A DNA stretch of 64,000 nucleotides. It comes from an uncultured delta proteobacterium. GTDB lineage: Bacteria; Desulfobacterota; Desulfobacteria; Desulfobacterales; SG8-13. Positions 8,797 through 23,314 of the stretch are shown here, in pieces. The number at the start of each line of letters is the position of its first letter. Within the stretch, counting starts at the first letter, position 1. The position numbers and the translations under genes were made by a program. The stretch is from NCBI GenBank assembly GCA_963848135.1, contig CAWKCK010000018.1, positions 448,938 through 512,937 of the forward strand, given 5' to 3'. Under the pieces are notes generated by a model. That model was given only the letters and a program-made list of their open reading frames with translations. It did not search any database and had not been told where the DNA came from.

Positions 8797-11037
8797 TCAC
8801 TCGTCGGAGAAACGCAAAAGCAGTTTTTTCATGGGATGTTCCACCCGGGCGATTGCCACACAACATTTCGAACGGGCCGCGATCTGGGCGGCGAAGTAGC
8901 CCACCAAGGTCCGCTTCAGAAGCCCCGCCTTATTTGCGCCCTTGACTGCGCCAATGATCAGGAGATCAAACTCGCCTGATCGGTCCACCAGGAAATCCAG
9001 GGGTGTGTCCGAGCACTGCATCTCAACGCGGAACATGGCCCGGCCCTTGTGTAATGAAATGGCTGTGGCCAAGACACTGCTGGAATAGTTCTTCTGTTCC
9101 CTGGTGTAGTTTTCTGGCAGGATGTTCAAGAAGGTAATCTCCCCTCCGAACCTGTCGGCCAAGCCCCCGGCCAGTGTCACCATGAGGCGAAGGTTCAGGT
9201 GACTGGTTAAAGACACGGCGATTTTTTTCGGGGCAAAATCTCCGTGGCTTTTCAAAAGCACTACATCGGCCCGGGCTCGGTTGAGAACGGACTGGACAAA
9301 GGCCACGGACTCGGGGCTCTGGTCTTGGGGATACCCCATAACAATGAGGCCGCAACCTTCCTCCTCAGCCGCGTGAACGATCCCCTTGGAGATACTGCGA
9401 GAAACCCGCACAACAGGCCGGACCGGGACCTTGTGTTCTTCGCCCGAGGAGGCTGAAGCCTCCAGGAGTTCCACTGAAGCCTCTGATAAGGACAGGGCGG
9501 TGTGGAAGTCCATCTGGGAAGAGGCAGCTACCACAGTAAGCACCACTACTTCGGTGCTGCCGGCTTCCGGAATGAAGGCCTGGGCCATCGTGAACAGAGC
9601 GGCCTGGTTCCGCGGATTGGCCACGGGCACCAGGATGCGGTTCGAAAAATCCAGGACAGGCGGCTGGGTCTCGCTGAGGATTAGGCTCATGCCGCTCCGA
9701 GAGCGGATTTCCCGTTTGCGGGAATAAAAAAAGTACAGGAGACAACCGATCCCGGCGAGCTGAAGCCCGATCATGATGGAATATATATCCAGCGTTAAGA
9801 GGAGAATGACATTGGCCACCATTGCCGCGTAAGGGATTATTCTTTTGATCTTGCTGGCGGGACCGGACTCCCGGGTGGCTTTGTGAAGCCGGATAAGGGC
9901 TACGGATAGGGGAAGCATGGACACCAAAAAACAGAAATTGGCGGCCTTGACGATGATGGAAAGCTCACCTGGCAAAATGGCCAGGACCGTGGCCAGACCG
10001 CAGGCCAAGAGGGCTGCCCGCGGGGTGAGGCTGGACTGGTGAATACGGCCCAGCATCGTGGGTAAAAACCGGTCCTTGCCCATGGCGAAAATCTGCCGGG
10101 CCTGGGAGATGATGGTGGAGTTCAAGGCCGCTGCCGATGCCAAAACGCCCCCTACCACGATGAATATCCACCCGGTCTGGCCCATGCCCGCCTTGGCCAC
10201 CACGGCCAGGGGGGCCCGGGATTCTGCCAGTTCCTTCCAGGGTACGACCAGGACCGCCACAACGGCAATAGCCACGTAAAAACACAGGCTCACCACCATG
10301 GCCAGGAACATAGCCCGGGGCACGGTCTTTTTAGGATCTACGATTTCCTCCGCGTTGTTGGCGATCAACTGGTACCCGAAAAAGGACACGTAAATGAGAG
10401 ACACGGCTCCGCCCACACCGGACCAACCATTGGGAAGCATCGGGGCCATATTGGCGGTGTCCGCCTTGAAAAGCCCGGCTGTGATAAGTACTCCGAGAAC
10501 CAGAAGATTGCCCCAGGTGAACACAAACTGGACCTTGTTCCCGCCCTTGGCGCCGACTGAGTTCAAGATCGTGAATCCAGTCACGGCCCCCACTGCGATC
10601 AGTCTCGTTCCGTATTCGGGGAACCCCGCAGGAAAAACGCTTGTCAGGTAAAAAGCGAGTCCCGTAGCGTACATGGCGCAGGCCAGGATGCTTCCAAGCG
10701 CCAAGAGCCATCCTGTCATGAACGCGTATAAGCTATCCAAGGTTTTGTAGGCATATGCGTATCCCCCTCCCGTAATGGGCACACGGCGAGAGAGTTCCGC
10801 GAACATGGCCACGGAAAGCATGGATAAAAGTCCGCACACCAGGTAAGCCAGCCAAGCCCCAGGTCCGGCCTTTTCAGAGGCAAGGCCAATGAGCACATAA
10901 ATTCCGGCGCCCATGAGTGCGCCCACGCCCAAAGTGGTGGCCCCGAAAAGTCCCATGGTACGTGCGAACGCTTCCGGGACCAGCTTGCGCCGGAAAATCT
11001 GGCGGAGGTTATTGTTTTGTGGCCCCTGCAGCATCAC
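8797..11037 (-). CDS. APC-family amino acid permease fused to C-terminal universal stress protein domains
   Basis: GALMGAGIY, GGGYAY, FFGYQ..ANNAEE, ~12 TM segments, then RILVPVANP...IVMG USP-like repeats. Confidence 0.85.
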   Translation of the reverse strand: MMLQGPQNNNLRQIFRRKLVPEAFARTMGLFGATTLGVGALMGAGIYVLIGLASEKAGPGAWLAYLVCGLLSMLSVAMFAELSRRVPITGGGYAYAYKTLDSLYAFMTGWLLALGSILACAMYATGLAFYLTSVFPAGFPEYGTRLIAVGAVTGFTILNSVGAKGGNKVQFVFTWGNLLVLGVLITAGLFKADTANMAPMLPNGWSGVGGAVSLIYVSFFGYQLIANNAEEIVDPKKTVPRAMFLAMVVSLCFYVAIAVVAVLVVPWKELAESRAPLAVVAKAGMGQTGWIFIVVGGVLASAAALNSTIISQARQIFAMGKDRFLPTMLGRIHQSSLTPRAALLACGLATVLAILPGELSIIVKAANFCFLVSMLPLSVALIRLHKATRESGPASKIKRIIPYAAMVANVILLLTLDIYSIMIGLQLAGIGCLLYFFYSRKREIRSRSGMSLILSETQPPVLDFSNRILVPVANPRNQAALFTMAQAFIPEAGSTEVVVLTVVAASSQMDFHTALSLSEASVELLEASASSGEEHKVPVRPVVRVSRSISKGIVHAAEEEGCGLIVMGYPQDQSPESVAFVQSVLNRARADVVLLKSHGDFAPKKIAVSLTSHLNLRLMVTLAGGLADRFGGEITFLNILPENYTREQKNYSSSVLATAISLHKGRAMFRVEMQCSDTPLDFLVDRSGEFDLLIIGAVKGANKAGLLKRTLVGYFAAQIAARSKCCVAIARVEHPMKKLLLRFSDE

Positions 11038-11097
11038 AATCCCCTAAGTCATAGGTAATACACCGGTTCTGCCGGTGAGAATTGAAAAGGCTCTGCT

Positions 11098-11322
11098 TTA
11101 AAAAACGAGAGAGTGATAGACGGTCCTCCCAGAGGAAGGTCCCGAATGGCAAGGAGGACAGTCATGAAGGATTGGCGTAGTCAACACTGTTGAATATTTG
11201 CGTTCGCCTTCTGTGGAAAGTTGAGAAAGTGAATTCTCTTTAGACTTTGATAGGTTATGGCCGCACCCGTTACAAAAATTGAAATCGTCAGGAATTTCGA
11301 GTTGGCATTTTGGGCATTTCAT
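11098..11322 (-). pseudogene. Zinc-ribbon N-terminal fragment of an adenylate/guanylate cyclase-like protein
   Basis: MKCPKCQ...FCNGCG followed by EGERK..TVL (start of a class III cyclase domain), then abrupt loss of similarity. Confidence 0.65.
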
Positions 11323-11582
11323 TTACGCCCCCTAGTTATGCGGCAGATACGGTTCGTTTGAAATAATAATGTGAAGGAGAGTTTGTATTTTTATATTACG
11401 AACGCGAATTTATGTCAATTTTGGGCAACTGGGGGAGATACAGACTACTTGCCAGTCATTGAAAATAAGGCTAATTCCAAGCACCGCTATATCTTGTGGT
11501 CAGACGAAATTTCAGGTGGGTGGTGATTACACGTCAGGCAATGAATATATCTGAAAAATCGGCTGGATAATGATTTATTGAG

Positions 11583-11633
11583 ACTATATGGATATTATTG
11601 GGGAGGTCAATAATCAGGACAGCTTGCCATTAT
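11583..11633 (-). promoter_or_regulatory. Conserved 51-bp element containing a sigma70-like promoter (copy 2)
   Basis: Minus strand TTGACC-16 bp-TATAGT; 44/51 identical to 1330..1380. Confidence 0.55.
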
Positions 11634-11794
11634 ATGGAATAGGGAAAAACTATATGTATGATATGGAGTTTAGGGAGTTTAGGGACATCCTGTATTCCCC
11701 CTGTCAAGCTTTTACTTTTTTATATTGATTACAACTTGTTATAATATTTGTAATCAAATGGACGCACTTATCTTCTACGTTTTTGGTTAAGGAA

Positions 11795-11977
11795 TTCGGC
11801 GGATAAACTCGCTTGTAAATGAGCCCTGACTTGATCGTTACTTTTATACGGCATATCCCTGACAGAGAGGGATCACCCATCATCCCTTGTCAAAGTTTGG
11901 GGCTCAGCGAGAGGCCCTTAATTGTCCCTCCAGAGGTCTCAAAGCCTCAACGTCCATTCTCGGGCTCTCTCGCCGAA
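11795..11977 (-). ncRNA. Putative IS110 bridge/seek RNA (copy 1)
   Basis: Mirror of 21341..21523. Confidence 0.7.
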
Positions 11978-11993
11978 GTCTGTTCGATTCAAG

Positions 11994-13277
11994 CTATATC
12001 TTCAGATATGACGGGCTGAACGGTTCCTTTTTCTTCATCAAGGTCCAGGCGATCACCAAAAATTTTGACGCCAACTTGACACGCATTTTGGTGCGAATAC
12101 CTTTTTCTTTTTCTCTGCCTTTCAGGATGCTGTGATAATAAGCTCTGAACTGCCTGGTCAAGCTCGAGGCCACCAAAGCTGCCTGGTAAAGAGCGTAACG
12201 CAAATCGCCTTTGCCTTTCTTGCTGATTACCGGCACGGCGCTGCGGCTTCTTTTACCGCTGCGCGAAGCATTCAGGTCAAAGCCTGCCAGTCGTTTGAGC
12301 TGCTGGATGTTTTCAAAACGGTGCGGGTTGCCGATCGCAGCCAGCACGACCGCCGACACATACGGCCCGAATCCTGGAATTGTCTGCAGGTGAGCATACT
12401 CCTCGCAGCTGCCGCTAATCTTTTCGATTTCCTTCTCGACTTTTTCGATCTGCTCTTTGGTGCTTTTGATATTCTCGGTAAGGACTTTTGCTTCAAGTTG
12501 CATCGCAGTGCCGGGGCGACAGCCGATCGACTCGCCGGCCATCTCCCAAACTGTGCGTAGACGACGACGTTGACGGATGCCTCGGCAGCGCTTTGTTACC
12601 CGATTAAAAAAGTCTTCAAATTCCAAAGATCTGATTTTCTCGGGAGACAAAAACCAGCGCACTATGGCCAGGTTCTCGTCTTCAGCCTGATTCCACGATT
12701 TGTCGAGCTCCGGAAAGTACTGTGCCACAAGATTGTTGCGGATGCGCACCCGGCAGCTGTGAAGCTGCTTCTTTAAACGCTTTCGCAACAACAGCAGACT
12801 GCGCAGTTCACGGATCGGCATGCCGGGCAGATCATAATAGTTGCATTTTCCCTGGCTGATAAGATCGGCCACATTGGCTGCATCTTTGGTGTCGTTTTTG
12901 TCCCAGCGCCCATCGAGCAATGTCCGGTTTTTCTTTATGGCCTCATTGGTGACATACACGACCATGTGACCGTGCTCGATGAGCTTCTCGGCCAGAGGTT
13001 TATGATATACACTGGTTGGTTCAACACCGAAAACGACCTCTCTGAAACCGTCGCGGTCCATGTAAAACTGCACACGGGTTAGAAGCTTCTCCAGCCCTTG
13101 CCGTGAATTTTCAAAGATCAAGCCTTTCAAAACGGTTTTACCGTTTGCGGTTCCCAGGAAAGCGTGATGCGTACTCTTGGCGATATCGATTCCTACGATC
13201 AAATGACGATCCGAACCCCGAATCTCCTGCTTGAGTTGACGGAACCCCTCGATCCTGCTAAGGTCAGAGTCGTTCAT
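11994..13277 (-). CDS. IS110 family recombinase/transposase
   Basis: DEDD RuvC-like motifs VGIDIAK, VEPTS, KNDTKDA; C-terminal IPGFGP and SRSGK...ISKKG...LRYALY. Confidence 0.95.
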   Translation of the reverse strand: MNDSDLSRIEGFRQLKQEIRGSDRHLIVGIDIAKSTHHAFLGTANGKTVLKGLIFENSRQGLEKLLTRVQFYMDRDGFREVVFGVEPTSVYHKPLAEKLIEHGHMVVYVTNEAIKKNRTLLDGRWDKNDTKDAANVADLISQGKCNYYDLPGMPIRELRSLLLLRKRLKKQLHSCRVRIRNNLVAQYFPELDKSWNQAEDENLAIVRWFLSPEKIRSLEFEDFFNRVTKRCRGIRQRRRLRTVWEMAGESIGCRPGTAMQLEAKVLTENIKSTKEQIEKVEKEIEKISGSCEEYAHLQTIPGFGPYVSAVVLAAIGNPHRFENIQQLKRLAGFDLNASRSGKRSRSAVPVISKKGKGDLRYALYQAALVASSLTRQFRAYYHSILKGREKEKGIRTKMRVKLASKFLVIAWTLMKKKEPFSPSYLKI

Positions 13278-13411
13278 GATAACCTCCTTTTAGCTGTGGG
13301 TTTAGGTTTTGGGTGCCCTTATGCTATCAGGAGGTTATTTTTTTACAAGGCGATAATTACTTTCTTTTTTACTACTCTTGGAAGTATATTCTATAGTTAT
13401 TTCAATATATA

Positions 13412-13579
13412 ACGCCCATAAAATTATAATTTTCTATTCCTTTCTAAGCTTTAATTGCTCACTACTGGCAATCTTATCACCACGCCTGACTGAAATACTG
13501 ACCGAGGGCTTTGAGATGCCAAGGCCGAGCAACTTTAGCTTGTAGAAAATTAGGAGGTTATTACGTTATTGGTGTCCCC
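13412..13579. mobile_element. Non-autonomous RAYT-derived mini element made of two opposed 3' ends
   Basis: Minus strand encodes LGISKPSVSISVRRGDKIASSEQLKLRKE* (cf. C-terminus of 18845..19852); plus strand from ~13518 reads AKAEQL*LVEN* then TATTGGTGTCCCC. Confidence 0.65.
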
Positions 13580-13650
13580 AATAACATTAATTTCGAACCA
13601 TTTTTTTTTTACTTTACCATCCACGACCATTCACTACTGAGGGATGAGTC

Positions 13651-16600
13651 TCATTGAAGAAGCAGAAACAAGATTCCAGGATTAATTTTAGACGCACTAT
13701 CAACGAATAATTCGACATTCTTTCCCGTCATACTAGCCGAAATACCGAATGCGCCGATGGCTGCCTCTGGCTCACCTTTATCCAATGCTCGGTCTGCGTC
13801 AATATCCATGAATGCCGCTACGTAGTAATGATTCCGGGCGGGAACATTGGCAATGCTGTATGCCCAGGGACCGGAGCCTAAGGGAGTGAGGATAGTGGTT
13901 TTAGCCAGAGCAGTAATCAGTCCTGAGCTATCATATACGGCAACGTAGATCTGCTGTCGTTCAGCTCCAGCGTAGGAGACATTGCCGGAAACCATATACC
14001 GCCTTGTATCAGTGGCATGATTATAGTTCGATCCGCCGGGATCATCTACTTCGGTCGGCCGCGTATCGAAACCATCCGCATAACCGTCATTGTCATCATC
14101 GGTGTCGGCATTGTTGCCAATCCCGTCGGAGTCGGTGTCAAACCACTCGGTTGCATCCCTCGGAAAGGCATCGTTCTCATCTAAAACCGTATCGTTGTCA
14201 TCATCGGTGTCGGCAATATCCCCAATGCCATCTGAATCTGTATCCAACCATTCATTGATGTCATTGGGGAAGGCGTCCTCGACATCGGCAACGCCATCAC
14301 CATCGCTGTCGGCTCTGATGGTGAAGTGGGGCATGCTGGAATAGAAGATTTGATGTATGGAGCAGTTATCGACATCTTGATCTGGGGCCTGCTCTCTGTA
14401 GGAATATATTCTGTAACTATAGGTATGGTTTACTTTAAGGACACCAGGGGCAAACGTGTAGGTACTGTCCGCCAGATAATCACTCCACTGTATCGGGTTG
14501 TTCCAGCCGTCGTTTAACCTGATGCGGTAGCGGGATGCCCCCGGCACATCATTCCAATCCACTGTTGGAGTGGTGCTTATGCGGATTGAATCTGCTGCGG
14601 GTGTGACATTGGCCGGCAGTGGCAGGTCACTTACTGAGAGATCGTCATGGACAAAGTGGGTATTGCTATCAAAATCGGTGACGATAAAGGTGTATATCCC
14701 TGCTTGAATGGCGGAAGAGTCACTGTAAACTTCAAAATCCTCATATATCGCTTCAGTCGAGCTTATATGCCGATCGTATCGCAGATAACGGTTTGTTGTA
14801 CCGTCCGGATAGACAACTTTTACGGACTGTATATTGGATGGCACACCGTCTGGATCCGAAACTTTAACCTCAAAGGCCAACCAGTAACTCGAACTTGAAG
14901 TATGCGGCATAACCGTATGAGCCACATAGGCACCCAAATTATCAAGATCGAGTGTGGGACTGGATGAACCGCCTGTAAGGGAAGTTGTTAAAAACTCAGG
15001 GCTTTGATCATGCGCCCAGGGGCTTGAGGACCCATGGTCCACATTCTGATCGAAAAACTCCCGGTGGGTTTTTACTCTATAACGGTAGAGGGTTTTCTCT
15101 TTCAGAAAGCCTTGGGCAAGCTGATAGGTGCTTTGAGTGGTGGGAAATGCATACAACCGGTTTCCGTCCGTATCGTATATTTCGAGGCGGTAGAAAGCAG
15201 CCCCGGAAACATCCTCCCAATCGAAATTCAAACCGGTGCTATTGACCAGCGTGTTGTGAACCGGTGTCAGCGTCGATGAATCCGGATATCCAATTGGGTT
15301 AAATGTCAATATTTCATCAACCGAATAACTGTTGCCAGACAGGTCCTCAACGACAAATGTGTAGGTTCCGTTTTGAATTGACACCGGATAACTTTCTCTC
15401 GAATACGCCCCTCCTGTTGGTGTATTTGAGGTGTATCCAGGATAGTAGTAGAGAAATTCTTCACCTCCGCCGGGATAGATCACTTTAACCGATTTGATGT
15501 CCCCCGGTACACCTTGAGCGTCATGAACTATAATCCAGAATGACAAACCGGTACCCATAAGTTCGCTATTCCAAACCTGTACACCGGCACTATCGAGTTC
15601 GATAAAGGGCGCCGCCGCCTCTGTCGATCCGGTGTAAAACCGATAGGATTGGCTGGTCGAGGCCGGCGATTTGGATCGATTGTCTATTTCTAAAGGATCA
15701 TGGGCATCCCGCGCTTCGACTCGAAACCGGTAATAAGTATTCGGCTCAAGAACCCCCGGAGGTACCCGGCAGGAAGTCACATTTCCGACATTGCCGTTCC
15801 AGATAGTCCTATTGTTGTCGTGACTAAATATTCTAACTTTATAGCGGTTCGCGCCGGGAATCGTATCCCAGGTAAAGGTAGGCGTAGTCGTGGTCACCAA
15901 ATTCATCCTGGCCACCAGCGACATGTAGGGCATTTTAGGTGGTGTAAAGGTGCCGGTAGGCGTATATTCGGCCGTATTCCCGTCGGCGTCAAAAGTCAGT
16001 TTTGTACCGTCCCATGTTATGGAAACCGTGACCGTTTGCCCCAGGCTCACAGACATTAGTTGTCCGCCGTCAAGGTGATCCCAGTGATAGGTTTCCTGTG
16101 CGTTGATGTTGTCTAGAGATACGCTGTAGGTGATCCTGTCATCTCTAACGTATATATTTGCGCTGATATCACCCGCACCGTTGTTGAGGAATGTGCCGGA
16201 AATTCTACCTCCGGCACTGCTATCCATGCTGATGCTCGGGACCGAAATATCCGCCCGCAGCGAATAAATACTGGCTGGATCCTTAAATGCTAGTCCACCG
16301 TTGCCGCGGCCGATTGTGTCGTTTATCGTAACCGACAGTTTTTGGCCCTGAATGGAGGCGTTTTCATACCACGGCTCCCACTTTTTAAGGTCGAGATCTG
16401 CAATGGAAGTATAGGAATTGAAGTCTTCATATAGGGATCCATTGACCCATACATTATCGAATGTGGCGGTGATGCTTTCAACTGTCGGATTTTTAAGGCT
16501 GGGGGTCAATGACTCCTCGTCCGGGACCGCCAGCGGATTTACGACAAGGGTGTCCACGTGTGTTCCGGTATTGCCTTCGGGATCGGTTACTGTGAAAGTG

Positions 16601-18786
16601 TAATCTCCCGCCTGAGGAGAGCCCGCCTGCCAAAAATCATATTCACCGGCAGTTGGGCTCACCGCATTACTATGCCCTAACTGTTTGGTGGTCGTCCCAT
16701 CCGGAAAGATCACTTCTACCTCATGACTGTTTCCGTTATAGGCGACACCATCGTGATCGACAACCCGGATGAACAATGACAAATTGCTCCCATCGGCATC
16801 CGAATCCGTTACGGCACCCCATTGCACGGAGTCAATGGCCGGTTTGGCACTGTGAGGCGCTAAACTCCCCGCCATCGTAAAGGTCAGCCAAGCGCTGTTT
16901 GAACGGTTGTCTTCGTCTACCCAATCGGCGTTATCACCCACTCTGACATACCACTCGTAGGTCTGTCCGGGTAGTAAAATTCCGGCGGGAACTGTGCAGG
17001 AAAGCAAATTTTGTTCCCTTGCTGTCCAAAAAACATTTTCCCCCAACGAGTTTTTGATCCACATTCTGTAAAATAAGGGCCCATCGGTGTAGTCTACCGC
17101 CGCCCAACTGAAAGTAGGCGTCTTAGAGGTCAGGATAGCTCCATTAGCGGGAGAAAAGGTGGCGGAATCCGGAATCGGAAGGGTGAGGTTGACATGCTGG
17201 ATATTTGTATCCGTGGCAATGGCCGAATCGCTGCTGACAACAGTGACAGAATAGGTACCGATTTCAGGAGAACCCGGTACTCTGAGAATGAACTCCCTGA
17301 AATCCGAAAGATAGTCGAAATCGACCTTAGTATAGGGCAGTACCCCACTGGGTCCCGTGATGGTGATTTGCGTTATATCATCGGGTAAGGTGCCGTAAAA
17401 ATCAGTGCCAATCTCCACTTCAAATTGGGTTTTTACACTCTGATCGAACTCTCGCCTGTTTTTTTCTACAAAGGTAATCGTAAAACTATGGTTTAAAACA
17501 AAGTCGGTTTCCGGTAAATTCTGGCCGGATAGAACCGTAAGTGGCATTGCATAATTACAGTCGCCTGTGCCGGCGCCTCCGTCCCACCATTGGTCCATAT
17601 AATTGCGCGGCACATTAACATTAGCATCGGCTTTAAGGAAAACCTTACCGGGCGTCAAACCTGATATTGTAAAATTTCCGCTTGCATCGGTGTTACCTGC
17701 GCCAATCCAGTTATTCCAACAACGATCAGAATAGGCGACCACCACCACACTTGCCAGGGATTGGCTATCGCTTCCGGTGACCGTGCCGGAGATAGAACCT
17801 GCCAGATCGAGCGAGAAATCAATATTGGCGGTCGTCTGACTCTGAACTATATCTACCTGGGCGGCTGACGACCAGTAAGTTGTATCGCTATAATACTCCT
17901 GCGCATAATTGCCCTGCGGGTCCGAAACCACAACCCTGTGACCTCCAGCCGGAACACCGGTTATGGAGTAAAATCCGTTAGCCAGAGTGTACTCCCGGCC
18001 AACCTGATAGTCCGTAGAATAATCTTTAACCTCAACACGTATACCCTCTATTGGATTACTTGAAACCGAATCAGTAACAAGGCCTGTTATGGTCCCACCA
18101 AGCTCCAGACTGAAATTTATGCCTGAGATTGTCTGACCCTCGGTCACATCGATTTTGGTGGCCAGGTTTGCGGCATAGGTGCCGTTGTAATATTCATCAA
18201 CATAGTTCGTTCCTGAGCAATCCACCCATATGCGGTAACTGCCCGGTGCCAAGCCGGTAACCGAATAATCGCCAACGGAATCCGTCTGATCCTCGCTTAC
18301 GCAAAATCCAGAAGTAAATTCACATGCATACACTCTAATATTTTCAACAGGATTATCAGTGGCTGTATCTTTAATATTCCCGGAAATTGATGCACCGGCG
18401 CCTATGCTAAAGTTAATATTGGAGGTGGTCTCGCCTTGAGTTACTGCAACAAGTGAAGCTGAATCGTAGCTGAATTCGTTATTATAATATTCGTATGCGT
18501 GGATGGTGCCACTGGTATAAACAAGAACTTTATAACTCCCGGTGGATAGCCCCGAATAACTGTAGTCGCCACTAGCATCCGTTGCCACAGAGCCGACCCA
18601 TGACCCCGAAACGTAATCACGAATTTGAACGCTTAATCCGCTAATCGGCATTGCCGTAACCGAACTGGTCACATTCCCGGAAATGGTGCCCGCAATGGCT
18701 GCCACCGGAACAACGAGGGCAAGAATTAGGAATACTGATAAAAAGTTAAATATTCGAGGCATTGGATGATATAAAGTCATTTTCAT
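13651..18786 (-). CDS. Large secreted/surface protein with carboxypeptidase-regulatory-like beta repeats, FN3-like repeats and thrombospondin type-3 repeats
   Basis: 1711 aa; signal peptide; repeated G.ISG.V...TD..G.Y...GL..G.Y units; PTF.W..V.GA..YR repeats; DSDGDG..D..DAFP.D..EW.DTDSDGIG repeats. Confidence 0.8.
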   Translation of the reverse strand: MKMTLYHPMPRIFNFLSVFLILALVVPVAAIAGTISGNVTSSVTAMPISGLSVQIRDYVSGSWVGSVATDASGDYSYSGLSTGSYKVLVYTSGTIHAYEYYNNEFSYDSASLVAVTQGETTSNINFSIGAGASISGNIKDTATDNPVENIRVYACEFTSGFCVSEDQTDSVGDYSVTGLAPGSYRIWVDCSGTNYVDEYYNGTYAANLATKIDVTEGQTISGINFSLELGGTITGLVTDSVSSNPIEGIRVEVKDYSTDYQVGREYTLANGFYSITGVPAGGHRVVVSDPQGNYAQEYYSDTTYWSSAAQVDIVQSQTTANIDFSLDLAGSISGTVTGSDSQSLASVVVVAYSDRCWNNWIGAGNTDASGNFTISGLTPGKVFLKADANVNVPRNYMDQWWDGGAGTGDCNYAMPLTVLSGQNLPETDFVLNHSFTITFVEKNRREFDQSVKTQFEVEIGTDFYGTLPDDITQITITGPSGVLPYTKVDFDYLSDFREFILRVPGSPEIGTYSVTVVSSDSAIATDTNIQHVNLTLPIPDSATFSPANGAILTSKTPTFSWAAVDYTDGPLFYRMWIKNSLGENVFWTAREQNLLSCTVPAGILLPGQTYEWYVRVGDNADWVDEDNRSNSAWLTFTMAGSLAPHSAKPAIDSVQWGAVTDSDADGSNLSLFIRVVDHDGVAYNGNSHEVEVIFPDGTTTKQLGHSNAVSPTAGEYDFWQAGSPQAGDYTFTVTDPEGNTGTHVDTLVVNPLAVPDEESLTPSLKNPTVESITATFDNVWVNGSLYEDFNSYTSIADLDLKKWEPWYENASIQGQKLSVTINDTIGRGNGGLAFKDPASIYSLRADISVPSISMDSSAGGRISGTFLNNGAGDISANIYVRDDRITYSVSLDNINAQETYHWDHLDGGQLMSVSLGQTVTVSITWDGTKLTFDADGNTAEYTPTGTFTPPKMPYMSLVARMNLVTTTTPTFTWDTIPGANRYKVRIFSHDNNRTIWNGNVGNVTSCRVPPGVLEPNTYYRFRVEARDAHDPLEIDNRSKSPASTSQSYRFYTGSTEAAAPFIELDSAGVQVWNSELMGTGLSFWIIVHDAQGVPGDIKSVKVIYPGGGEEFLYYYPGYTSNTPTGGAYSRESYPVSIQNGTYTFVVEDLSGNSYSVDEILTFNPIGYPDSSTLTPVHNTLVNSTGLNFDWEDVSGAAFYRLEIYDTDGNRLYAFPTTQSTYQLAQGFLKEKTLYRYRVKTHREFFDQNVDHGSSSPWAHDQSPEFLTTSLTGGSSSPTLDLDNLGAYVAHTVMPHTSSSSYWLAFEVKVSDPDGVPSNIQSVKVVYPDGTTNRYLRYDRHISSTEAIYEDFEVYSDSSAIQAGIYTFIVTDFDSNTHFVHDDLSVSDLPLPANVTPAADSIRISTTPTVDWNDVPGASRYRIRLNDGWNNPIQWSDYLADSTYTFAPGVLKVNHTYSYRIYSYREQAPDQDVDNCSIHQIFYSSMPHFTIRADSDGDGVADVEDAFPNDINEWLDTDSDGIGDIADTDDDNDTVLDENDAFPRDATEWFDTDSDGIGNNADTDDDNDGYADGFDTRPTEVDDPGGSNYNHATDTRRYMVSGNVSYAGAERQQIYVAVYDSSGLITALAKTTILTPLGSGPWAYSIANVPARNHYYVAAFMDIDADRALDKGEPEAAIGAFGISASMTGKNVELFVDSASKINPGILFLLLQ

Positions 18787-18822
18787 ATCCTCATTGCATA
18801 AATAGTTTAGGAGAGTTTCAGT

Positions 18823-19906
18823 ACGCCCATAAAATTATAAATTTCTATTCCTTTATAAGCTTTAATTGCTCGCTTCTGGCAATCATATCACCACGCTTAA
18901 CTGAAATACTGACCGAAGGCTGTGAGATACCAAGCTTTTTTGATAGTTCGGTGGCGCTGAAACCCAGCTTCCTTACCGCCCAATAACACAATAAACTGCG
19001 CGCTTTGACTGTGAGCGGATATTTGCCGGCCCTCCACACCTGTTCAGGATCTATACCCAACTCTGATGACACTCTCATGGTTACTTTTTCTAAATCATAT
19101 CCTTGGGCTTTAAGTCGATAGCGCTCCTCCAAACGCTCTTGCGCTTGATCTAATACGGCCTGTGCAAATTCACCGTCGCCCAAAATACGCTCATCACTTT
19201 TCATATGATCCTGTGCCCGGCGCATCGCTTTGACGGCCGACCAGCCGCCGGCACTTCGAACAAGACCGCCTCCAACCAACTCCGGCCGACGGCCCCGGGC
19301 TATGCCCTTATCGACATAGGCCCGGTAGGCTTTACGCGCAGCGGCAACTTTCCTTCCAAACAGCCGCAGTACATAGGCGGTGTCCTGAAAATCTCTTTTA
19401 ACTTTTCCCATCAGCACGCTATGGCCACTGTATGGATATTTATCGGATTCTGTCAGACTTTCAACGCTTTTGGCGCGTAATGGATTCAGATGAATATAAC
19501 GCACCAATTCCAGCAAGTAGGTGTCCTCTTGGCACAATATTGATTTGTAACGATTCTGGAATAGATGTCCATGCCGCCGGTGCCGGCGATTAAACGAAAC
19601 CGCATAGCCGGTTAATAGCCGTCTCATCACCGTGGCCAAAGGCGCTTGTCCGGTTCGCAGTAAAATATGCGCATGATTGGGGATAAGCGCCCAGGCGAAA
19701 CAGGCGGTTTGTGTTTCAGTGACGATATCGCCCAAACGTTTGACGAAATTATCCCGGTCCTGATCATCCGAGAATATCCGTTGACGCTTGATTCCCCGGA
19801 CGAAGATATGATGCAGCGCTCCAGGAGCATCGATGCGCGATTTGCGTGGCATAAAACCTTTATATCATCTATTGTTCATTCATAAAAGTTATAATTCTAT
19901 GGGCGT
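18823..19906 (-). mobile_element. RAYT-like (Y1 HUH) element bounded by 18-bp inverted repeats
   Basis: ACGCCCATAAAATTATAA (18823-18840) and TTATAATTCTATGGGCGT (19889-19906), 17/18 match. Confidence 0.7.
18845..19852 (-). CDS. REP-associated tyrosine transposase-like protein (Y1_Tnp) with C-terminal HTH
   Basis: MPRKSR...HHIFVRG, NHAH (HUH), GHLFQNRYKS, RYIHLNP, C-terminal HTH ATELSKKLGISQPSVS. Confidence 0.88.
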   Translation of the reverse strand: MPRKSRIDAPGALHHIFVRGIKRQRIFSDDQDRDNFVKRLGDIVTETQTACFAWALIPNHAHILLRTGQAPLATVMRRLLTGYAVSFNRRHRRHGHLFQNRYKSILCQEDTYLLELVRYIHLNPLRAKSVESLTESDKYPYSGHSVLMGKVKRDFQDTAYVLRLFGRKVAAARKAYRAYVDKGIARGRRPELVGGGLVRSAGGWSAVKAMRRAQDHMKSDERILGDGEFAQAVLDQAQERLEERYRLKAQGYDLEKVTMRVSSELGIDPEQVWRAGKYPLTVKARSLLCYWAVRKLGFSATELSKKLGISQPSVSISVKRGDMIARSEQLKLIKE

Positions 19907-20040
19907 TATATATTGAAATAACTATAGAATATACTTCCAAGAGTAGTAAAAAAGAAAGTAATTATCGCCTTGTAAAAAAATAACCTCCTGATAGCATAAG
20001 GGCACCCAAAACCTAAACCCACAGCTAAAAGGAGGTTATC

Positions 20041-21324
20041 ATGAACGACTCTGACCTTAGCAGGATCGAGGGGTTCCGTCAACTCAAGCAGGAGATTCGG
20101 GGTTCGGATCGTCATTTGATCGTAGGAATCGATATCGCCAAGAGTACGCATCACGCTTTCCTGGGAACCGCAAACGGTAAAACCGTTTTGAAAGGCTTGA
20201 TCTTTGAAAATTCACGGCAAGGGCTGGAGAAGCTTCTAACCCGTGTGCAGTTTTACATGGACCGCGACGGTTTCAGAGAGGTCGTTTTCGGTGTTGAACC
20301 AACCAGTGTATATCATAAACCTCTGGCCGAGAAGCTCATCGAGCACGGTCACATGGTCGTGTATGTCACCAATGAGGCCATAAAGAAAAACCGGACATTG
20401 CTCGATGGGCGCTGGGACAAAAACGACACCAAAGATGCAGCCAATGTGGCCGATCTTATCAGCCAGGGAAAATGCAACTATTATGATCTGCCCGGCATGC
20501 CGATCCGTGAACTGCGCAGTCTGCTGTTGTTGCGAAAGCGTTTAAAGAAGCAGCTTCACAGCTGCCGGGTGCGCATCCGCAACAATCTTGTGGCACAGTA
20601 CTTTCCGGAGCTCGACAAATCGTGGAATCAGGCTGAAGACGAGAACCTGGCCATAGTGCGCTGGTTTTTGTCTCCCGAGAAAATCAGATCTTTGGAATTT
20701 GAAGACTTTTTTAATCGGGTAACAAAGCGCTGCCGAGGCATCCGTCAACGTCGTCGTCTACGCACAGTTTGGGAGATGGCCGGCGAGTCGATCGGCTGTC
20801 GCCCCGGCACTGCGATGCAACTTGAAGCAAAAGTCCTTACCGAGAATATCAAAAGCACCAAAGAGCAGATCGAAAAAGTCGAGAAGGAAATCGAAAAGAT
20901 TAGCGGCAGCTGCGAGGAGTATGCTCACCTGCAGACAATTCCAGGATTCGGGCCGTATGTGTCGGCGGTCGTGCTGGCTGCGATCGGCAACCCGCACCGT
21001 TTTGAAAACATCCAGCAGCTCAAACGACTGGCAGGCTTTGACCTGAATGCTTCGCGCAGCGGTAAAAGAAGCCGCAGCGCCGTGCCGGTAATCAGCAAGA
21101 AAGGCAAAGGCGATTTGCGTTACGCTCTTTACCAGGCAGCTTTGGTGGCCTCGAGCTTGACCAGGCAGTTCAGAGCTTATTATCACAGCATCCTGAAAGG
21201 CAGAGAAAAAGAAAAAGGTATTCGCACCAAAATGCGTGTCAAGTTGGCGTCAAAATTTTTGGTGATCGCCTGGACCTTGATGAAGAAAAAGGAACCGTTC
21301 AGCCCGTCATATCTGAAGATATAG
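20041..21324 (+). CDS. IS110 family recombinase/transposase
   Basis: Protein identical to 11994..13277; AGGAGG RBS. Confidence 0.95.
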   Translation: MNDSDLSRIEGFRQLKQEIRGSDRHLIVGIDIAKSTHHAFLGTANGKTVLKGLIFENSRQGLEKLLTRVQFYMDRDGFREVVFGVEPTSVYHKPLAEKLIEHGHMVVYVTNEAIKKNRTLLDGRWDKNDTKDAANVADLISQGKCNYYDLPGMPIRELRSLLLLRKRLKKQLHSCRVRIRNNLVAQYFPELDKSWNQAEDENLAIVRWFLSPEKIRSLEFEDFFNRVTKRCRGIRQRRRLRTVWEMAGESIGCRPGTAMQLEAKVLTENIKSTKEQIEKVEKEIEKISGSCEEYAHLQTIPGFGPYVSAVVLAAIGNPHRFENIQQLKRLAGFDLNASRSGKRSRSAVPVISKKGKGDLRYALYQAALVASSLTRQFRAYYHSILKGREKEKGIRTKMRVKLASKFLVIAWTLMKKKEPFSPSYLKI

Positions 21325-21340
21325 CTTGAATCGAACAGAC

Positions 21341-21523
21341 TTCGGCGAGAGAGCCCGAGAATGGACGTTGAGGCTTTGAGACCTCTGGAGGGACAATTAA
21401 GGGCCTCTCGCTGAGCCCCAAACTTTGACAAGGGATGATGGGTGATCCCTCTCTGTCAGGGATATGCCGTATAAAAGTAACGATCAAGTCAGGGCTCATT
21501 TACAAGCGAGTTTATCCGCCGAA
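21341..21523 (+). ncRNA. Putative IS110 bridge/seek RNA (copy 2)
   Basis: Outer stem TTCGGCG/CGCCGAA encloses two stem-loops with large internal loops; loop 1 carries ATGGACGT and AGGGAC, which match the target. Confidence 0.72.
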
Positions 21524-21832
21524 TTCCTTAACCAAAAACGTAGAAGATAAGTGCGTCCATTTGATTACAAATATTATAACAAGTTGTAATCAATATAAAA
21601 AAGTAAAAGCTTGACAGGGGGAATACAGGATGTCCCTTATTTTTCTTATTTTTATCTTCGCCACTGGTCTTTCTATCACTAATTGCTTATAGCCTTGTTT
21701 GTGATGTGCTTTTTGTCTGGATGCCGACTTTTGGCAACGGGCGTAATATTGTGCACGCTTCCTCTTGACCTTCTGGTATCCTATCCTAATGTTTCGTTTT
21801 CATAATCTTCATTTGAGAGGCAGGAGAATTCT

Positions 21833-23314
21833 ATGATGCCCAGCAGCAGACAAAACCGCCCGGACGCCGGGTGGAAATTCGAGAACAGTTACGCACGGTT
21901 GCCGGAGGCTTTCTATGTCCGGCTGAATCCAGTACCGGTGCGCACGCCGAAACTCGTGATTTTCAACGTAGCGCTGGCGCAGTTTTTGGGGCTGAACCCC
22001 GATGCCCTAAATGGCGATGAGGGCGCCGCCGTTTTCTCGGGCAACAAGCTTCCCGAGGGGGCCGAGCCTCTCGCTCAGGCCTATGCGGGGCATCAATTCG
22101 GTTTTTTCACCATGCTGGGCGATGGGCGGGCAATATTGCTGGGCGAGCAACTGACACCGAAAGGTGAGCGCTTCGACATCCAGTACAAAGGGTCCGGCAG
22201 AACCCCGTTTTCGCGGCGGGGGGACGGGCGGGCGGCCCTGGGGCCGATGCTACGGGAGTACATCATCAGCGAGGCCCTGCACGCCCTGGAAATACCGACG
22301 ACCCGCAGCCTTGCGGTGGTGACCACTGGTGAACCGGTGTCCCGTGAAACCACCCTGCAGGGTGCGATTCTCACCCGCACGGCGGCCAGCCACATCCGCG
22401 TGGGCACTTTCGAGTATGCGGCGGCAAGGGCAAAACCCAACGAGTTCCGGACGCTGGCCGATTACACCATCCGTCGCCACTTTCCTGATCTGGCCGCGGA
22501 CGGGAATCCGTATCTTGCCCTACTTGGGGCCGTCATGGAGCGGCAGGCGTCCCTGGTGGCCCGCTGGCTCCAGGTCGGCTTCATCCACGGCGTTATGAAC
22601 ACGGACAACATGGCCCTTTGCGGTGAAACCATCGATTACGGCCCCTGCGCGTTCATGGACGCCTACGATCCGATTACCGTCTTCAGTTCCATCGATCAAA
22701 ACGGCCGATACGCCTACGGCCGGCAGCCGCAGATCGCCCAGTGGAATCTTGCCCGGTTTGCCGAGACACTGTTGCCGCTAATTCACGAGGATCCGCAAGA
22801 GGCCGTATCGATGGCAAAAGAGGCAATCTCTGGATTTTCAGACAGCTTCCGTCATTACTGGCTGGCGGGCATGCGGGCCAAACTGGGACTGTTGAACCAG
22901 GAAGCGGATGACGGCGCTCTGGTGGAGGACTTGCTCGATTGCATGCACCGACACGGAGCGGATTTTACCAACACCTTTCGCGAGCTGGCATCCGGTTCCT
23001 TGCCGGAGGCCTCCGTGTTCCGGGCCCTGGATTTTAAGCAGTGGTTTGAGCGCTGGCAGGCCCGGCTAAAACGGCAACCTGATTCCTGGGAGGCAGCCCG
23101 TCGGCTTATGAACACCCACAACCCGGCGGTCATCCCCCGCAACCACCGGGTGGAAGAGGCCTTGGAGGCAGCCGTGGAGCGGGCCGATTTTACGGTCATG
23201 GAAAAACTACTGGTTTTTCTGTCCCAACCCTACCAGAATCCACCGAAACAGGCCGGCTATCACCAGCCACCGCCCCCTTCGGCGCAGCCCTACCAAACCT
23301 TTTGCGGGACGTGA
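21833..23314 (+). CDS. selO: Protein adenylyltransferase SelO (YdiU family)
   Basis: [41 protein letters not shown], terminal TFCGT. Confidence 0.95.

Follow-up and report, generated by a model that had tools for sequence, protein, structure and literature searches.

Insertion sequences (ISs) of the IS110 and IS1111 groups are guided to their targets by RNA, and in the available parts of two reports this guidance is established for both groups (PMC11208160, PMC11187229). In the part of PMC1525189 at hand, all copies of ISPa11 (6/6), ISPpu9 (7/7), ISPpu10 (7/7) and ISRm19 (4/4) are associated with repetitive extragenic palindromes (REPs). IS110 serves as a comparison family in the accessible part of 10.1101/119735, and it is cited once, in a reference, in that of PMC2817692. 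REP targeting by IS621 is experimentally supported, as far as the accessible source text goes. Choi is said to have described in 2003 that IS621 targets a REP repeat. The targeting of REPs and transposon ends by IS110/IS1111 elements was the background to an earlier reading, the original prediction, of the DNA described here, and this background is sound; such targeting is already known, and no new principle is claimed. The DNA is a stretch of 64,000 nt (the window) from an uncultured delta proteobacterium (Desulfobacterota; Desulfobacterales; SG8-13; GCA_963848135.1, contig CAWKCK010000018.1, 448,938-512,937 of the forward strand). In it, an IS110-family IS interrupts the terminal repeat of a unit built around a gene that resembles those of REP-associated tyrosine transposases (RAYTs).

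How does the IS come to lie there? The junctions, the structure of a predicted RNA and the covariation of its guides, a one-sided adjacency to RAYT-like genes and the occupancy of sites in this genome are the evidence presented, and they point to an active IS110-family IS that very probably uses a bridge/seek-type RNA to insert at GT in the terminal repeat of the RAYT-like unit. In the proposed mechanism, an RNA from the 3' non-coding end of the IS would guide insertion at the GT of a 12-nt target, A-T-G-G-R-C-G-T/C-C-C, which forms the outer part of the unit repeat, and a second segment, ACA-AG-GGATG, would serve as donor guide through its match to the element's own right end. The IS would leave as a circle whose junction builds a TTGACA-N17-TATATA promoter, and recombination would take place at GT with nothing else changed. 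We infer both the production and binding of the guide RNA and the formation of circles by the IS.

The IS is 1727 bp long, counting one core. Three full-length copies, all 100% identical, were found by blastn of the 1726-nt body against the 6.03-Mb assembly (G000); two lie in the window and one on another contig, named here C5. Copy B occupies 19905..21633 on the forward strand and copy A 11685..13413 on the reverse strand, both GT cores included (bodies 19907-21631 and 13411-11687). In copy B the left flank TTATAATTCTATGGGC (19889-19904, forward strand) runs into the GT core at 19905-06, and at the right junction the GT at 21632-33 is followed by CCCT at 21634-37, giving the boundary TTATAATTCTATGGGCGT / TATATATTG…CAGGAT GT / CCCT. 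In copy A, read on the reverse strand, the left flank is TTATAATTTTATGGGC-GT (13412-13429 as reverse complement) and the right junction is GT then CCCT at 11686-11681 (CCCT being the reverse complement of 11681-11684), giving TTATAATTTTATGGGCGT / … / CCCT. The C5 copy is bounded by GGGAACAGAATGGACGT / … / CCCG, and a related element on a further contig, C4, by TTATAATTTAATGGGCGT / … / CCCC. All four elements share the bounds …GRCGT / TATATATTG...CAGGAT GT / CCC, and the GT found at both junctions of each is the short repeated core expected for the IS110 family. Removal of the IS restores TTATAATTYTATGGGC-GT-CCCT at both window copies, as had been claimed, and the junction sequences agree.

The recombinase gene of copy B (20041..21324, forward strand) encodes an IS110-family DEDD/Ser recombinase of 427 aa; that of copy A lies at 11994-13277 on the reverse strand. 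Both domains are recognised (PF01548, 2.1e-26, 93 bits; PF02371, 9.4e-20, 71 bits), and the protein passes the model NF033542 'IS110 family RNA-guided transposase' with 183.7 bits against a cut-off of 140. It also matches the IS621 transposase structure 8wt6 (E 8.3e-20) and the ISCro4 structure. The gene leaves non-coding ends of 134 nt on the left (19907-20040) and 307 nt on the right (21325-21631). Terminal inverted repeats were absent when the ends were compared, and no IS1111-type subterminal inverted repeats (11-13 bp) emerged when 80 nt of the left end were aligned with the reverse complement of 80 nt of the right end. The longest subterminal match there is 8 bp (TATATTGA) at the asymmetric offsets 3 and 36, where the IS1111 criterion calls for distances of 6-7 bp to the left tip and 3 bp to the right. 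The features of IS110 sensu lato are present, namely both recombinase domains, core-flanked site-specific insertion and a predicted target-loop RNA. Among IS1111-group features, the longer downstream non-coding region with a guide loop (PMC11187229, PMC11208160) is present and the 11-13 bp (7-17 bp) subterminal repeats are absent.

The RAYT-like gene (18845..19852, reverse strand) encodes 335 aa with a Y1 HUH domain and a helix-turn-helix (HTH) C-terminus like that of DnaA domain IV. The protein matches PF01797 (1.3e-08), and H60, H62 and Y119, which form the HUH motif and the catalytic Tyr, are invariant among 28 homologues. A profile-versus-PDB search matches the C-terminus to the DnaA C-terminal domain 2z4r (E 2.8e-5); with the RAYT-like protein as a single query sequence, the PDB yielded nothing of use, and no solved Y1 transposase was matched by sequence. 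The gene is flanked in the window by 18-bp inverted repeats, and repeats of 18-30 bp flank most of 29 homologues. Copy B occupies the 5' repeat, TTATAATTCTATGGGCGT (19889..19906, forward strand), 36 nt before the start codon. The outer tip of this repeat, CCCT, has been moved to 21634..21637 (forward strand), where the right half of the target now lies past the IS and the identity between copies A and B ends. The 3' repeat, TTATAATTTTATGGGCGT (18819..18840, reverse strand), is unoccupied; its 18 bp (18823-18840) lie 4 nt past the stop codon and are followed by ACTG, so that CCC is missing. This agrees with the earlier description of 18819-18830 (reverse strand) as reading ATGGGCGT-ACTG, a 3' repeat without its right half.

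Copy A adjoins a gene-less remnant of a second RAYT-like unit (13412..13578, reverse strand). It consists of the occupied end repeat (13412-13429), a 50-aa C-terminal remnant (13437-13559; tblastn, 56% amino-acid identity) and a partner end (13558-13578) that reads …ATTGGTGT-CCC and is diverged, unoccupied, inverted and ~165 bp from the occupied end. A 21-mer fits this partner end at no fewer than 5 mismatches, a level at which the genome gives 12 other apparently chance matches, so its status as an end rests on its position, inverted and across the RAYT C-terminal remnant. With that proviso, the earlier description of 13568-13579 as ATTGGTGT-CCCC with a diverged left half is borne out.

Which sequence could direct the IS to these repeats? 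Just past the recombinase stop, the 3' non-coding region contains the predicted target-binding loop of a bridge/seek-type RNA (21345..21411; this and the following parts on the forward strand). An outer stem is formed by 21345-21356 paired with 21401-21411. The 5' strand of the internal loop is GAGAATGGACGT; the left target guide, AATGGACGT (21360-21368), reads in the sense of the left target together with the core. A cap hairpin follows at 21370-21385, and the right target guide, GGGAC (21390-21394), lies in the 3' strand of the internal loop as the complement of GT+CCC. By analogy, this layout is the architecture described for the target-binding loop of IS621.

The loop was examined across the IS family. 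One genome per species was scanned; 255 stretches encode relatives of the recombinase, and the best 80 of these 255 were retained, giving 79 distinct loci with 80 IS copies. End-calling failed at a few loci (L022, L038, L076, L079 and L088 among others), and the miscalled rows stay in the denominators of the flank counts as non-CGT or non-CCC. In an alignment of 59 homologous loops, for which the structure was derived from the window sequence itself, 91.8% of cells are paired versus 32-56% when the structure is slid. Compensatory, both-sided changes are seen in 12 of 15 pairs, and the observed values are reached in 0/500 shuffles of the 59 loops. An Rfam scan of 11000-22500 at E<=1 returned zero families, so the family alignment had to serve for defining the RNA. 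Of the two donor guides, the left one has a candidate, ACA[AG]GGATG (21428..21437, forward strand), which repeats in the same sense the final 8 nt of the right IS end and the core G (ACAGGATG). The corresponding motif NNN-AG-NNATG is identical to the element's own right end in 40/49 distinct elements, and its variable G/A base agrees in 44/44 (tallied by hand). For the right donor guide there is a visual candidate only (…TATA-AAAG-TAAC), the left end being near-invariant in the family.

The flanks of the family follow the guides. Of the 74 copies whose left end was called, 66 have a left flank ending in CGT; CCC forms the right flank in 52/58, and 87/88 loops carry GGGAC as right guide. In the 8 nt that precede CGT, the left guide is identical to the left flank at a mean of 5.15/8 positions versus 3.84 +/- 0.16 for shuffled pairs (55 distinct pairs; 0/5000 shuffles reach the observed value), and the excess identity is located at positions -9 to -4. 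This pattern indicates a target of ~9+3 nt, the right half of which is fixed in the clade and the left half variable. At locus L047 the guide AAGAGCGT equals the unit end AAGAGCGT, and at L034 the guide TGCACGAACGT fits the flank at 11/11 positions. The whole IS clade is very probably specialised on RAYT-like units, with a right guide fixed on the invariant tip GT/CCC and a left guide that shifts with the subterminal sequence of the unit subfamily.

Adjacency to RAYT-like genes is one-sided. A profile built from 11 RAYT-like proteins was searched against six-frame translations of the IS flanks, and rows whose left flank does not end in GT were excluded. At 18 of 63 assessable junctions (17 assemblies), the left end of the IS has a RAYT-like gene or gene fragment at a distance of 23-66 nt, in 9 cases at the gene's 5' end (divergent) and in 9 at its 3' end (co-directional). 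At the right end, RAYT-like sequence was found at 1 of 48 junctions, and there as an internal fragment (L036). The left end of the IS always points toward the inside of the unit because the target is asymmetric. Occupied sites with an inverted partner number 13 (9 in gene-less doublets and 4 across a RAYT-like gene), and the partner is preceded by an outer GGG in 11 of these. A comparison at the level of whole genomes was uninformative: among 60 relatives, a RAYT-like match is present in 12/15 IS-positive versus 29/45 IS-negative genomes, the DNA search for the IS being insensitive and the related genomes non-independent.

What do RAYT-like units look like in their unoccupied state? In a second sample, centred on RAYT, the 29 best RAYT-like loci out of 60 relatives were taken, the units being chosen INDEPENDENTLY of the IS. 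An outward GTCCC lies 44-70 nt before the start codon in 25/29 (mode 52) and within 60 nt (<=60) after the stop codon in 17/28, versus 4/58 opposite-strand control windows. An IS is present at 2/57 ends, one of each kind. The inverted repeats of these units extend through CGTCCCC at both ends, often then TA; the CCC is thus part of the unit repeat and not of the IS. Locus L099 allows a direct comparison with an empty site: ATAACAGCGT/IS/CCCTCAGGAAT at the occupied end, ATAACAGCGTCCCTCAGGAAT at a paralogous end that has no IS. The L101 unit carries GAAAGTTATAATTTCATGGACGTCCCT at both ends and belongs to the same repeat subfamily as the window; its ends contain ATGGACGTCCCT / ATGGACGT, a perfect match to the guides of the window IS.

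These split repeats also bear on the order of events. Y1 transposases of the IS200/IS605 family insert beside short specific sequences, and in line with this the RAYT-like unit might have inserted beside a pre-existing IS, for example through a Y1 transposase that prefers the left boundary of the IS. However, the occupied ends are repeats split as …CGT / IS / CCC…, which when rejoined give the intact repeat of unoccupied ends and paralogues. Moreover, the IS copies are identical and the repeats around them have diverged, which makes the IS younger than the repeats. Such a reversed order is extremely improbable, and insertion of the IS into an existing repeat is the reading followed below.

Within this genome, occupancy follows the target sequence. 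The strict 18-mer TTATAATTNNATGGNCGT occurs 4 times in the 6.03 Mb and is occupied in 3 of these, and six sites are found at <=2 mismatches. The sites at window positions 19889 and 13412 and at C4:193799 all read ATGGGCGT+CCC and are occupied. Empty sites are those at window position 18823 (GT-ACT), C4:193018 (ATTGGGCGT-CCC), C4:183844 (ATGGGCGT-CCA) and window position 13558 (ATTGGTGT-CCC). For the repeat family, this amounts to 3/3 sites with ATGGGCGT+CCC versus 0/4 deviating sites (Fisher's exact test by hand, p = 1/35). The expectation that occupancy would track the match to the guides is supported in this genome, and the wider proposal that the IS110 element targets the RAYT-like end motif is supported by this occupancy, by guide covariation, by one-sided adjacency and by the GTCCC at unoccupied ends.

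Excision as a circle would be consistent with the ends of the element. A TTGACA -35 box lies in the right end (21611..21616, forward strand), and a circle would place it 17 nt from the TATATA (19907-19912) of the left end. Across the joined ends, a TTGACA-like box, N17 and TATATA are found in 45 of the 51 family elements with both ends called. Contigs from four metagenome/metatranscriptome runs contain relatives of the IS, and their matches break at 19904 and 21637-21641, the two edges of the IS when CGT and CCCT are counted in.

Several observations weigh against RNA-guided insertion into RAYT-like ends. Neither the circle junction nor the empty site was seen among the contigs of these four runs, which are uninformative on expression. 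The counts within the genome are tiny, and its sites possibly share ancestry; loci within one assembly are non-independent, and contig ends cut many flanks. An association of the motif with RAYT genes elsewhere had been expected, and it holds for the left junctions as against the right ones, but 45 of the 63 left junctions have no RAYT-like coding sequence inside 150 nt. Nine of these 45 belong to gene-less doublets, in which the motif recurs in inverted orientation at a short distance (52-179 bp); many of the others share the motif families, though some show no more than a resemblance to the end motifs. Three exact ATGGRCGTCCC sites are empty, all of them inside open frames of 138-332 aa. Insertions into those three frames would probably be lost; by analogy, target context beyond base pairing could also contribute, as it is reported to matter for ISPpu10 (10.64898/2026.03.19.712850).

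The C5 copy is a further difficulty. It stands in an intergenic, non-RAYT site, CAGAATGGACGT-CCC, and a copy in unrelated sequence had been named beforehand as evidence that would speak against the original prediction. On that point the C5 copy goes against it, but the site fits the guide at 11/12 left positions and at CCC, which is consistent with RNA guidance and no refutation. In addition, the guide has A versus G at position -4 of the three occupied repeat sites, and its one perfect left match, on C5, is at no RAYT-like end; natural guide/flank pairs differ at position -4 in 19%.

Does the IS then simply insert at any 11-12-nt match to its guides, in a lineage without specialisation on RAYT-like elements? 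That the best match in the genome, on C5, is not a RAYT end, and that the guide differs from the RAYT ends at one base, would fit an incidental match of this kind. It is nevertheless improbable, given that adjacency is one-sided across 17 assemblies (18/63 versus 1/48) and that the invariant GGGAC guide corresponds to the CGT-CCC tip, which is itself invariant in the RAYT-like family. Left guides also vary in step with local unit ends, as at L047 and L034, and the ends of L101 are perfect for the window IS.

Linkage without targeting is another explanation: the IS and the RAYT-like gene could be carried together in one larger mobile element or duplicated segment. The two genes are adjacent in several genomes, and the two window copies stand as a perfect inverted repeat on either side of one 6.45-kb segment, both of which would be expected from such a history. 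However, the identity between the copies stops exactly at GT and CCC(T). The two arms (11681-13433 and 19885-21637) form a 1753-nt inverted repeat that is 100% identical inside the IS, has 2 mismatches in the 22-nt left flank and ends after CCCT. The RAYT remnant, which forms a direct repeat (D1) with 18823-18934, is 91% identical over 112 nt to the 3' end of the intact gene, yet the IS copies are 100% identical. Furthermore, the IS occupies both ends of the unit equally often (9 cases each) and also occurs in gene-less doublets and at a RAYT-less site, and most RAYT-like units of the relatives are without it, as the occupancy of 2/57 ends indicates. Linkage of this sort is highly improbable as the cause of the association, and guided insertion remains the preferred explanation.

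The identity of the target unit requires some care. In the available part of PMC2817692, the RAYT criterion is a gene between two repeats in inverted orientation. The Y1 HUH domain and the inverted-repeat flanks fit a RAYT, but on the curated RAYT model NF047646 the protein scores 71 bits, under the cut-off of 80. Hairpin-forming REP ends were considered and rejected: eight unit ends folded as single-stranded DNA gave energies between 0 and -3.7 kcal/mol (z between -2.2 and +0.9). There are ~7 repeat sites in this genome and 7 exact ones in genome G061, versus more than 100 (>100) per genome for REPs. RAYTs are typically domesticated single-copy genes. The gene itself is present as one intact copy and one remnant here, and in relatives a genome can have as many as 16 matches, often broken ones, which is more in the manner of an insertion sequence. 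Non-hairpin ends, ~7 sites and copies that are multiple and often broken in relatives make RAYT-like the best name. The family resembles a domesticated RAYT less than it does an uncharacterised family of insertion sequences whose terminal repeats end in CGTCCCC.

Locus L003 of the family (G008:C22, 1440-1500) has a truncated relative of the IS with a complete RAYT-like gene on one side and, on the other, a RAYT-like fragment of 46 aa from the N-terminus. The break bears short tandem copies of ACGTCCCACCCGCGTC and may be a recombination scar at the ends.

Some relatives of the IS carry two complete target-loop modules (L040-L042, on a complete named chromosome, and L025, L026, L028, L045, L051, L072 and L083). 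The left guides differ between the two modules, and each module has its own compensating outer stem. Within one genome, insertion L040 fits loop 2 (CATAGACGT) and L041 fits loop 1 (CATCCCCGT versus the site CATCACCGT). This suggests a single IS programmed for two targets.

Have the IS clade and the Y1-plus-HTH units been associated for long? A long-standing parasite-hyperparasite relation, in which the right guide is frozen, the left guide is re-programmed, two loops cover two subfamilies and the IS travels as internal cargo, is possible, if rather doubtful. The insertion point lies 3-7 bp inside the unit tip, which would make the IS an internal cargo of the unit, able to spread with it between genomes. 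Insertion may also affect the mobility of the RAYT-like unit, possibly immobilising it. The earlier notion of a multicopy safe harbour comes down to no more than ~7 sites here.

The element at the third repeat site, C4:193817-197333 (G000), is chimeric. Identity with the IS is 86% over the first 139 nt of this element and 100% over the final 156 nt; its recombinase has ~60% amino-acid identity and is frameshifted. The element has its own guide loop (TGAATAGGCGT / GGGAC) and is broken by an opposite-strand transposase gene, itself broken by a small open reading frame (196489-196746).

The surroundings of the IS in the window are also of note. The two copies form a perfect 1.7-kb inverted repeat enclosing the 6.45-kb segment (copies and segment together, 11681-21637), and this segment could be invertible by homologous recombination. 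It contains the repeat remnant, the RAYT-like gene and a gene (13651-18786) for a 1711-aa, repeat-rich, surface-type protein with matches to CarboxypepD_reg, SdrD_B, fn3 and TSP_3. A gene for the protein adenylyltransferase SelO (21833-23314) starts 200 nt past the right end of copy B, and beyond copy A lies a gene for an amino-acid permease-Usp fusion (8797-11037).

The locus offers a clean natural data set on target choice and target change in RNA-guided IS110-type elements, with one target half fixed and the other re-programmed. The empty variant sites in the same genome act as controls, and the target is a second mobile element. It also draws notice to a widespread, uncharacterised family that combines Y1 HUH and DnaA-like domains and is bounded by repeats ending in CGTCCC. 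Most worth following are the fixed-right and re-programmed-left guides across the clade, and the natural two-loop elements.

How does this IS compare with elements that target the ends of other transposons? Partridge and Hall reportedly described IS4321 and IS5075 in 2003 as elements directed at the terminal repeats of transposons of the Tn21 family. Like these two, as far as the accessible source text describes them, the IS is an IS110/IS1111-type element found at one position and in one orientation inside another transposon's terminal inverted repeat. The host here is a Y1 (HUH) plus HTH unit, whereas theirs is a Tn3-family DDE transposon, and gene-less doublets are targeted here as well.

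The comparison with IS621, an IS110-group element of E. coli, reveals both differences and likenesses. The predicted RNA lies in the right (3') end here and in the left end of IS621. The core of IS621 is CT, in contrast to GT here, the recombinase has 427 aa here versus 328 in the solved chain, and the target here is an AT-rich, non-hairpin terminal repeat and not a GC-rich REP. The two elements share a recombinase of the DEDD plus Ser-domain type, a 2-nt core repeated at both junctions and, as target, the repeat of a Y1-transposase system. They are also alike in the order of the guides: in the available part of PMC11208160, the left target guide lies on the 5' side of the loop in the same sense as the left target plus core, and the right target guide on the 3' side, complementary to the core plus right target.

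The targeting of one host repeat family is a trait shared with ISPpu9, ISPpu10 and ISRm19, all of whose copies lie in such a family, but the family here has ~7 members and lacks a stable stem-loop. With ISPa11 and the IS1111 group, in which the seekRNA lies downstream of the transposase gene, the element shares a long downstream non-coding region that sets the target, and ISPa11 itself hits REPs, according to the accessible part of PMC11187229. The 11-13-bp subterminal repeats of that group are absent here, however, and the guide order follows the IS621 description. What distinguishes the present element is therefore the combination of a predicted right-end RNA with IS621-type loop order, the absence of long subterminal repeats, a GT core, and the non-hairpin repeats of Y1-plus-HTH units as its target.

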